This document shows, piece after piece, positions 13,300 through 13,760 of a stretch of 64,000 bases of DNA; the first letter of the stretch is position 1, and every line of letters starts with the position of its first letter. Under the pieces are notes generated by a model. That model did no database searches and was not told the origin of the DNA. It worked only from the letters and a program-made list of their open reading frames with translations. Made by a program: the position numbers and the translations under genes. Location: the NCBI RefSeq assembly GCF_055900595.2, contig NZ_CM148325.1. One strand, written 5' to 3'.

Positions 13300-13760
13300 G
13301 CTGGGGTGAGGCTTTTCCCTCACCCAAACCCTCTCCGTGAGGAGAGGGGCCGCGCCGGATGCGGCGTAAACGCCTTATCCGGCCTACAAGAACGTGCAAA
13401 TTCAACAAATTGTGCTTTGTTTTTGTAGGCCTGATAAGCGTAGCGCATCAGGCAATTAGCCCATCTTCTCCATGTGGAGAGGGGCCGCGCCGGATGCGGC
13501 GTAAATGCCTTATCCGGCCTACAAGAACGTGCAAATTCAACAAATTGTGCTTTGTTTTTGTAGGCCTGATAAGCGTAGCGCATCAGGCAATTAGCCCATC
13601 TTCTCCATGTGGAGAGGGGCCGCGCCGGATGCGGCGTAAACGCCTTATCCGGCCTACAAGAACGTGCAAATTCAACAAACTGCGCTTTGTTTTGTAGGCC
13701 TGATAAGCGTAGCGCATCAGGCAATAAGCCCCACCTTCTCCATGTGGAGAGGTGGGATTG
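13300..13760. repeat. Tandem REP/BIME array between mtlA and mtlD: about 3.5 copies of a 135-bp unit
   Basis: ggagaggggccgcgccggatgcggcgtaaacgccttatccggcctaca ... tgtaggcctgataagcgtagcgcatcaggca recurs at 13341, 13476, 13611 and partly at 13746; each unit holds two inverted REP sequences. Confidence 0.9.

Follow-up and report, generated by a model that had tools for sequence, protein, structure and literature searches.

A rare three-unit allele of a copy-number-variable BIME array in the mtlA–mtlD spacer of Escherichia coli

Bacterial interspersed mosaic elements (BIMEs), which are composed of repetitive extragenic palindromic (REP) sequences, have been described in several forms. BIME-1 elements consist of a z1 and a y REP with a long L linker that often contains an integration host factor (IHF) site, and they are found as single copies; BIME-2 elements combine z2 and y through a short S linker and are found in tandem copies (Ton-Hoang 2012, PMC3333891). 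Atypical BIMEs are chimeras of the components y, z1, z2, L, S, s, l and r in several tandem copies (PMC3333891). In Escherichia coli K-12, rayT (yafM) is flanked by BIME-2 elements of Y and Z2 (PMC2817692, PMC3333891). Here, we analysed a 64,000-nt stretch of an E. coli chromosome (NCBI RefSeq assembly GCF_055900595.2, contig NZ_CM148325.1; hereafter, the window) and focused on the 498-bp spacer (13265–13762) between mtlA and mtlD of the mtlADR operon, which lies on the minus strand of the window. The spacer was filled by a tandem array of a 135-bp BIME-1-type unit. Between 0 and 3 units are found at this site in the species, and the three-unit form present in the window is rare. Overall, we consider it likely that a BIME was tandemly triplicated within mtlADR, with a copy number driven by recombination, stem-loops that are co-transcribed with the operon and a number of units that is close to neutral. 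The literature searched contained no discussion of the mtlA–mtlD spacer of E. coli.

Architecture, class and copy number of the array

An earlier note, made from the sequence alone, had proposed a tandem REP/BIME array of approximately 3.5 copies of a 135-bp unit at this site, with two inverted REPs in each unit. The tandem arrangement was confirmed by Tandem Repeats Finder (period 135, 3.1 copies, 96% matches, 0% indels, score 777) and by a repeat search, which located three in-register copies of 135 nt (from 13332, 13467 and 13602) and a 23-nt hairpin motif present four times at 135-nt intervals. When aligned, as the note had recommended, the unit copies matched at 96%–100%. The estimate of 3.5 copies was not borne out, as the array comprises three full units, with the short hairpin present once more (3.1 copies in total). 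The proposed range of 13300–13760 held for 13332–13752 and failed near mtlD, where 13290–13348 is a separate conserved leader and not REP.

On the plus strand, each unit consisted of a Y REP, an AT-rich L-type linker of 36–37 nt, a Z1 REP in inverted orientation and a 35-nt spacer in which a small hairpin, designated H (TCTCCATGTGGAGA), is located. In the mRNA sense, the order is hairpin H, Z1 REP, the long L-type linker and the inverted Y REP. The two inverted REPs per unit were present as claimed, with Y on the plus strand and Z1 on the minus strand in all three units. The inverted short Z REP reads GTAGGCCTGATAAGCGTAGCGCATCAGGC on the plus strand at 13425, 13560 and 13694, and the REP copies differed by 0–1 mismatches between units. 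The features of the array, in the direction of transcription, are as follows:

13332–13752, no strand: whole tandem array
13730–13756, minus: hairpin H, the first past the mtlA stop codon (CCCACCUCUCCACAUGGAGAAGGUGGG in the mRNA sense), beginning 5 nt past the stop; approximately −20 kcal/mol
13694–13722, minus: Z1 REP of unit 3 (mtlA-proximal), GCCTGATGCGCTACGCTTATCAGGCCTAC; a short Z form, unlike the Z2 beside K-12 rayT
13658–13693, no strand: L-type linker of unit 3, 36 nt, with the core degraded to ATTCAACAAACTG
13624–13657, plus: Y REP of unit 3, GCCGGATGCGGCGTAAACGCCTTATCCGGCCTAC
13589–13623, no strand: 35-nt head-to-head spacer at a unit–unit junction; its internal H (13595–13620) is a hybrid of both outer hairpins
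13560–13588, minus: Z1 REP of unit 2
13523–13559, no strand: L-type linker of unit 2, 37 nt, with the core GCAAATTCAACAAATTG, as in the canonical L at 43794–43828
13489–13522, plus: Y REP of unit 2, 1 mismatch
13454–13488, no strand: 35-nt head-to-head spacer with an internal H at 13460–13485
13425–13453, minus: Z1 REP of unit 1 (mtlD-proximal)
13388–13424, no strand: L-type linker of unit 1, 37 nt
13354–13387, plus: Y REP of unit 1

The six REPs were imperfect palindromes with an internal mismatch and CTAC at the end of each, in line with the GTAG/CTAC tetranucleotide conserved at the foot of the 30–40-nt REP palindromes, and their predicted folding energies were −13 kcal/mol (Z1) and −21 kcal/mol (Y). 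The succession of Y(+), L, Z1(−) and spacer, repeated three times, gave the alternating REP orientation of a BIME. The sequences also belong to a dispersed family: a 901-bp query matched a median of 18 places per genome, and all copies were intergenic. The Y REP matched the units beside K-12 rayT, and near-identical Y and Z1 REPs were present at two other places in the window. The first of these (43760–43857) is a canonical single BIME-1 (Y, a 35-nt L with CAAATTCAATATATTG, and Z1) between convergent open reading frames (ORFs), and the second (4440–4519) is a Y/Z1 pair with a 21-nt linker.

The sequences flanking K-12 rayT were used as an anchor for classification. Since the Z2 found there is a long form (GCCTGATGCGACGCTGGCGCGTCTTATCATGCCTAC) and the Z of the array is short, the latter is Z1. 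The linker core in the array (CAAATTCAACAAATTG) was identical at 14 of 16 positions to that of the Y–L–Z1 element at 43760–43857 (CAAATTCAATATATTG). The array unit has the z1 and y composition of BIME-1; the single-copy feature of this class is seen in the K-12 allele and not in the window allele, with its three tandem copies. BIME-2 does not fit the window array, which contains Z1 rather than Z2 and a linker of 36–37 nt rather than a short S. BIME-1 parts repeated three times in tandem, with 0, 1, 2 or 3 units across the species, agree with the description of atypical BIMEs, and the window array was assigned to this class because a BIME-1-type unit is tandemly repeated. The designation REP/BIME in the earlier note was correct, but the BIME-1 type of the unit (described as single-copy) and the distinct element on the mtlD side had been missed.

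The comparison of copy number across strains that the note had suggested was performed with 5,426 complete E. coli genomes, which were searched with the mtl flanks; representative alleles were read, and allele frequencies were obtained from 60 records evenly spaced down the ranking. Units numbered 0, 1, 2 or 3 at the site. A 94-bp spacer with no REP (e.g., O157:H7 EDL933) accounted for approximately 17% of the sample, and a 229-bp spacer with one unit (K-12 and BL21) for approximately 63%. Spacers of 363–364 bp with two units were found in 9 of the 5,426 genomes, and 498-bp spacers with three units in another 9 (ca. 0.2%). Spacer length (94, 229, 363 and 498 bp) thus increased in steps of 134–135 bp. 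A 70-nt query spanning the unit–unit junction, which cannot match one-unit alleles at full length, gave full-length matches in exactly 18 genomes (nine three-unit and nine two-unit). The 901-bp segment was identical in eight independent complete genomes, and a ninth copy was 99% identical.

A different spacer structure, typical of strains such as uropathogenic E. coli (UPEC) 536, was found in approximately 19% of the sample. In this structure, Z1 is accompanied by a truncated L and a degenerate Y, to which one, two or three units of 101 bp are added, each composed of Z2, a 17-nt linker and Y; the added unit is a standard BIME-2 resembling the units beside rayT. A second, independent copy-number series at the mtl spacer was observed in the B2-type E. 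coli A33, PBP8, UPEC 536 and SaT040.

Origin of the copy-number changes

Two hairpins that resemble each other flank the unit, namely the H after the mtlA stop codon (CCCACCUCUCCACAUGGAGAAGGUGGG) and hairpin 1 of the mtlD leader (CCCUCUCCUCACGGAGAGGG), and the breakpoints of unit gain and loss fell within the H hairpins bracketing the unit. The no-REP allele contained a single hairpin with the 5′ flank of H and the loop and 3′ flank of leader hairpin 1. In multi-unit alleles, the internal hairpins were the reciprocal hybrid, with the 5′ flank of hairpin 1 and the 3′ flank of H. In addition, the loop of the terminal hairpin was swapped between ACAT and TCAC among alleles. From the hybrid hairpins and loop swaps, we infer footprints of unequal homologous exchange or slippage. 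Exchange would have occurred first between the two H copies and later between whole units, through unequal homologous recombination or replication slippage. The same internal hybrid was present in all 18 multi-unit genomes (at least 97% identity over the junction), suggesting one ancestral 1-to-2 duplication with later 2-to-3 changes. The spacer of E. albertii likewise contained H, a REP pair and hairpin 1; therefore, the bracketing duplication is older than E. coli. The no-REP allele is most simply explained as a secondary deletion.

The alleles would later have moved between lineages by ordinary recombination. The three-unit allele was not bound to one clone, as a variant was carried by strain R32_14_1F and at least three genetic backgrounds were represented. 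Between the window and strain Z0117EC0005, only 1 difference was found in 13000–13999, compared with 11 and 20 in the neighbouring kilobases, which points to a short recombination tract at the mtl spacer. Over 12000–36000, divergence from the same strain (NZ_CP098223.1) was patchy: differences numbered 0–3 per kb at 25000–28000 and the mtl spacer but reached 83 per kb near 22000–23000; this pattern indicates a mosaic of recombination tracts. The window flanks had no match at 99% in the complete-genome set. The best complete-genome match to the window was approximately 98% over 20 kb, and the lineage of the window is not among the 5,426 genomes. A flank divergence of 1%–3% ruled out that the window comes from any of the eight genomes in which the identical allele was found.

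An unlikely alternative is that the units were amplified by RayT (TnpA_REP), through cleavage at CT sites in the inverted REP (iREP) or the linker followed by strand transfer or rolling replication. TnpA_REP cleaves and recombines BIMEs in vitro and has been proposed as a source of their copy-number variation (Ton-Hoang 2012, PMC3333891). Its substrates include all three REP types. However, the difference between the 0- and 1-unit alleles and the internal junction both mapped to the non-REP H hairpins rather than to iREP or linker sites, the increments were exact whole units, and the ACAT/TCAC loop swaps resemble homologous exchange. Because the junctions are located in non-REP sequence, a RayT origin of the first duplication is less well supported. 

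The mtl locus offers a clean natural case of BIME copy-number change (0–3 units) in which the breakpoints are readable. It shows that a BIME-1-type element, which is usually single-copy, can amplify if short direct repeats bracket the unit. The amplification appears to have reused a hairpin resembling part of a conserved operon element.

Transcript structure and probable role

A sequence scan of the spacer on the operon strand detected no sigma-70-like promoter and no intrinsic terminator-like site; thus, the array is expected to be transcribed as part of the mtlADR message. The minimum free energy of the spacer was −236.7 kcal/mol (z = −10.2 relative to shuffles). When the elements were folded separately, the values were −13 to −20 kcal/mol for H, −13 for Z1, −21 for Y and −16 for each leader hairpin, and the total folding energies of alleles with 0, 1, 2 and 3 units were −40, −111, −165 and −232 kcal/mol, respectively. 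The array RNA would accordingly be pictured as a string of independent stem-loops (four H, three Z1 and three Y) together with the leader hairpins.

REP stem-loops stop PNPase and RNase II and thereby stabilise the upstream message, and BIMEs can cause Rho-dependent attenuation (Newbury 1987 and Espeli 2001, as cited in Dar and Sorek 2018, PMC6061677, where this work is also extended). By analogy, the stem-loops of the array would block 3′-to-5′ exonucleases and protect the upstream mtlA segment, and they may give some Rho-dependent attenuation ahead of mtlD and mtlR. An exonuclease barrier or weak attenuator is the most likely mode of action of the array. The first hairpin, 5 nt past the mtlA stop codon, could also slow the termination of mtlA translation. 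Liang, Rudd and Deutscher reportedly found in 2015 that REPs within 15 nt of a stop codon lower the expression of the upstream gene via ribosome stalling, and the same effect could apply to the first mtl hairpin.

Several observations weigh against the interpretation of a recombination-derived, transcribed array with a role in the operon. The boundaries of a tandem repeat are ambiguous by rotation, and recombination was deduced from junction sequences, so that a RayT-mediated 1-to-2 step keeps some probability. For all alleles with 0–3 units, the ribosome-binding region of mtlD was predicted to be unpaired with a probability of 0.46–0.51. The ca. 17% of E. coli without REP at this site are matched by Enterobacter, Leclercia and Pseudocitrobacter; since many E. 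coli and other genera have no REP here, any REP function at the site would be dispensable. The Term-seq tables of Adams 2021 list no sense-strand 3′ ends for mtlA or mtlD, which for mtlA would be explained by the operon being off without mannitol. Finally, matches to the IHF consensus with one mismatch numbered 57 in the window against 57 expected, and those in the linkers were no commoner than chance; IHF binding to the linkers is suggested only through their similarity to the L motif.

It is also quite unlikely that extra units were selected because they shift the MtlA:MtlD (and MtlR) ratio via stabilisation or attenuation. The earlier note had proposed that such elements can stabilise or partly terminate the transcript and in this way set the mtlA to mtlD expression ratio; this agrees with established REP biology, but a tuned copy number is made less plausible by the population data and by the lack of an intrinsic terminator-like site in the spacer. 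Intra-operon REP/BIME elements can alter relative expression (literature cited in a passage of PMC6061677), total folding energy rises with unit number, and the three-unit allele occurs in at least three genetic backgrounds. However, several backgrounds are equally expected from neutral recombination tracts, and multi-unit alleles were found in only 18 of the 5,426 genomes. Moreover, zero- and one-unit alleles coexist and are both frequent, a quite different BIME-2 array occupies the same place in another lineage, and the accessibility of the ribosome-binding region was flat over copy numbers. Given the many strains with 0 or 1 unit, the other array and this flat accessibility, unit number seems to matter little; additional units probably have only a small further effect, and copy number is likely to be close to neutral. 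The allelic series is nevertheless a ready set for gauging the effect of each REP pair on upstream and downstream expression in a native operon.

A role at the DNA level, in which three IHF-binding L motifs and REP cruciforms form a nucleoid-organising or supercoil-insulating site between highly induced genes, is very unlikely. IHF sites are frequent in the L linker of BIME-1 (PMC3333891), and the linker core of the array matches the canonical L. There were also hits to naRNA4, a REP325-derived nucleoid-associated RNA, below the threshold (39 vs. 59.5 bits). In contrast, the IHF consensus matches were at chance level, the mtlA-proximal linker core is degraded, and the element is wholly missing in many strains. 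A search of Rfam at permissive thresholds gave only sub-threshold hits, to naRNA4 and ES036; these candidates were rejected, as the hits were due to generic REP similarity.

Two long ORFs that the earlier note had regarded as spurious were confirmed at 13320–13724 (minus, 134 aa) and 13359–13697 (plus, 112 aa). They arise on both strands because 135 nt equals 45 codons and keeps the frame through the units. Their translations are 45-residue repeats with no Pfam family above the threshold and no match in a collection of 15 billion proteins, and the Prokaryotic Genome Annotation Pipeline annotates neither ORF in genomes with the identical sequence, in agreement with the note. Despite the long ORFs on both strands, there is practically no chance that the region is an assembly artefact, which is rejected because eight independent complete genomes carry the identical 901 bp, or that it codes for proteins of 134 and 112 aa, as the products are periodic REP translations and the ORFs shrink with copy number. 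The array therefore serves as a warning for annotation, in that a 135-nt period makes long false ORFs on both strands.

The mtlD leader, the operon and comparison with known elements

The three mtl genes were identified at full length with NCBIfam profiles. The operon and the element on the mtlD side are laid out as follows:

13763–15676, minus: mtlA, phosphotransferase system (PTS) mannitol transporter IICBA, from the ORF list; NF011663, E = 0, 1324 bits, full length
13765–13763, minus: mtlA stop codon TAA
13290–13348, minus: mtlD-leader element, not REP; a conserved double hairpin and 3′ segment of approximately 60 nt, directly upstream of the mtlD ribosome-binding region
13329–13348, minus: leader hairpin 1, CCCUCUCC-ucac-GGAGAGGG
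13304–13325, minus: leader hairpin 2, GGGUGAGGG-aaaag-CCUCACCC
13290–13303, minus: leader 3′ segment, CAGCCCUCUCGGGU
13265–13289, minus: mtlD translation initiation region, with the Shine–Dalgarno sequence GAAGG at 13277–13273 and an A-rich leader
12116–13264, minus: mtlD, mannitol-1-phosphate 5-dehydrogenase; NF002648, E = 3e-265, 879 bits
11529–12116, minus: mtlR, third gene of the operon; NF008234, E = 1e-76

Antisense to mtlD, near its 3′ end, the Term-seq tables list an RNA 3′ end at K-12 position 3775490, minus strand, approximately window position 12200 (Adams et al. 2021, PMC7815308 supplementary file 2). Elsewhere in the window, two paralogous gene pairs at 16201–17712 and 26143–27618 shared approximately 69.6% DNA identity with each other; both encode a DUF3302 protein and an HlyD-family protein, and they are named yibI-yibH and yiaW-yiaV in a related annotated genome.

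The leader was compared in the mtlA–mtlD spacers of 80 species, which were located via MtlD. Its identity to E. coli averaged 87.5% over 65 enterobacterial species, whereas third codon positions in the neighbouring mtlD reached 57% and synonymous mtlD sites were approximately 55% conserved. In Enterobacteriaceae, the last ca. 95 nt before mtlD (hairpin 1, hairpin 2, CAGCCCUCUCGGGU and the A-rich ribosome-binding region) were near-invariant, and the loop of hairpin 2 varied in length from 4 to approximately 20 nt. An extended form of hairpin 2 showed changes on both sides in 7 of 15 pairs, with 91.5% of cells paired compared with at most 58% when the partner was slid; the observed values were not attained in any of 500 shuffles, and RNAalifold predicted the same stem. 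The arms of hairpin 1 were invariant and thus carried no covariation information. Its arm GGAGAGGG could pair with the upstream CCCUCUCC or, alternatively, with a CCCUCUC segment further downstream. Within E. coli, the leader was single-copy, occurring at one site in each of 5,404 genomes, and its identification as a dispersed repeat (e.g., boxC) was rejected for this species on that ground. No Rfam family matched it at permissive thresholds, and no paper on an mtlD leader was found in the literature searched.

The H hairpins of the array were alike leader hairpin 1 at 15 of 20 positions. Tentatively, the leader may be an undescribed cis-acting RNA of the mannitol operon, for instance an intercistronic module for processing or stabilisation, or a switch linked to the termination of mtlA translation; the array may multiply one half of it or displace that half from the mtlA stop codon. 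If so, the array may be less interesting than the conserved leader onto which it was grafted. The array itself is of modest value, and the mtlD leader is the more promising lead for new biology. At the same position in Erwiniaceae (Pantoea, Mixta and relatives), unrelated GC-rich tandem hairpins were found (GGGGCGGGCAAGCCCGTCCC twice), which hints that two tandem hairpins, and not a particular sequence, are needed before mtlD.

The site just past the mtlA stop codon also varied among genera. Escherichia carried BIMEs there, and Citrobacter and Salmonella a lone REP of a different type; ERIC/IRU elements were present in C. werkmanii, C. youngae and strain RIT691, Klebsiella had hairpins of other kinds, and nothing occupied the site in Enterobacter or Leclercia. 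This site looks like an insertion hot spot. A stable hairpin started no more than 15 nt past the mtlA stop codon in 69 of the 80 species.

Among known elements, the array resembles BIME-1 (RIB/RIP) in its Y and Z1 placed tail to tail, its long AT-rich linker with a core (CAAATTCAAnAnATTG) common to the element at 43760–43857, and its extragenic location 3′ of a gene; in K-12, the allele consists of one element of this type. It differs in that the whole element is present three times with a locus-specific 35-nt hairpin spacer, and one of the three linker cores is degraded. With atypical BIMEs, the array shares multiple copies, BIME-1 parts with BIME-2-like tandem behaviour, and a strain-variable number at the locus, whereas its head-to-head spacer was not found at other loci by megablast. 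This spacer looks to be derived from the neighbouring mtlD-leader hairpin and not from a generic BIME motif. Tandem REP pairs in strain-variable number are also typical of BIME-2, and B2-lineage alleles at this site carry 1–3 Y–Z2 units of 101 bp; however, those units have Z2 and a 17-nt S linker, in contrast to the Z1 and 36–37-nt L of the window, and gyrase binding is documented for BIME-2 and not for the type found in the window.

Functionally, the closest counterparts are the REPs of malE-malF and other intra-operon stabilisers, which are likewise transcribed between two cistrons of a sugar-uptake operon and form stable stem-loops. These stabilisers can stop PNPase and RNase II from degrading the message upstream, and the mtl array would be expected to act in the same mode. 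They have 2–3 REPs, whereas the mtl array has six REPs and four extra hairpins. The naRNA4 family (Rfam RF02564, from REP325) is itself REP-derived, which accounts for its hits in the array; at 32–39 bits (best 39.3), below the gathering threshold of 59.5, the array is not a member. The array is an ordinary copy-number-variable repeat of a known kind, present here as a rare allele, and not a new system.

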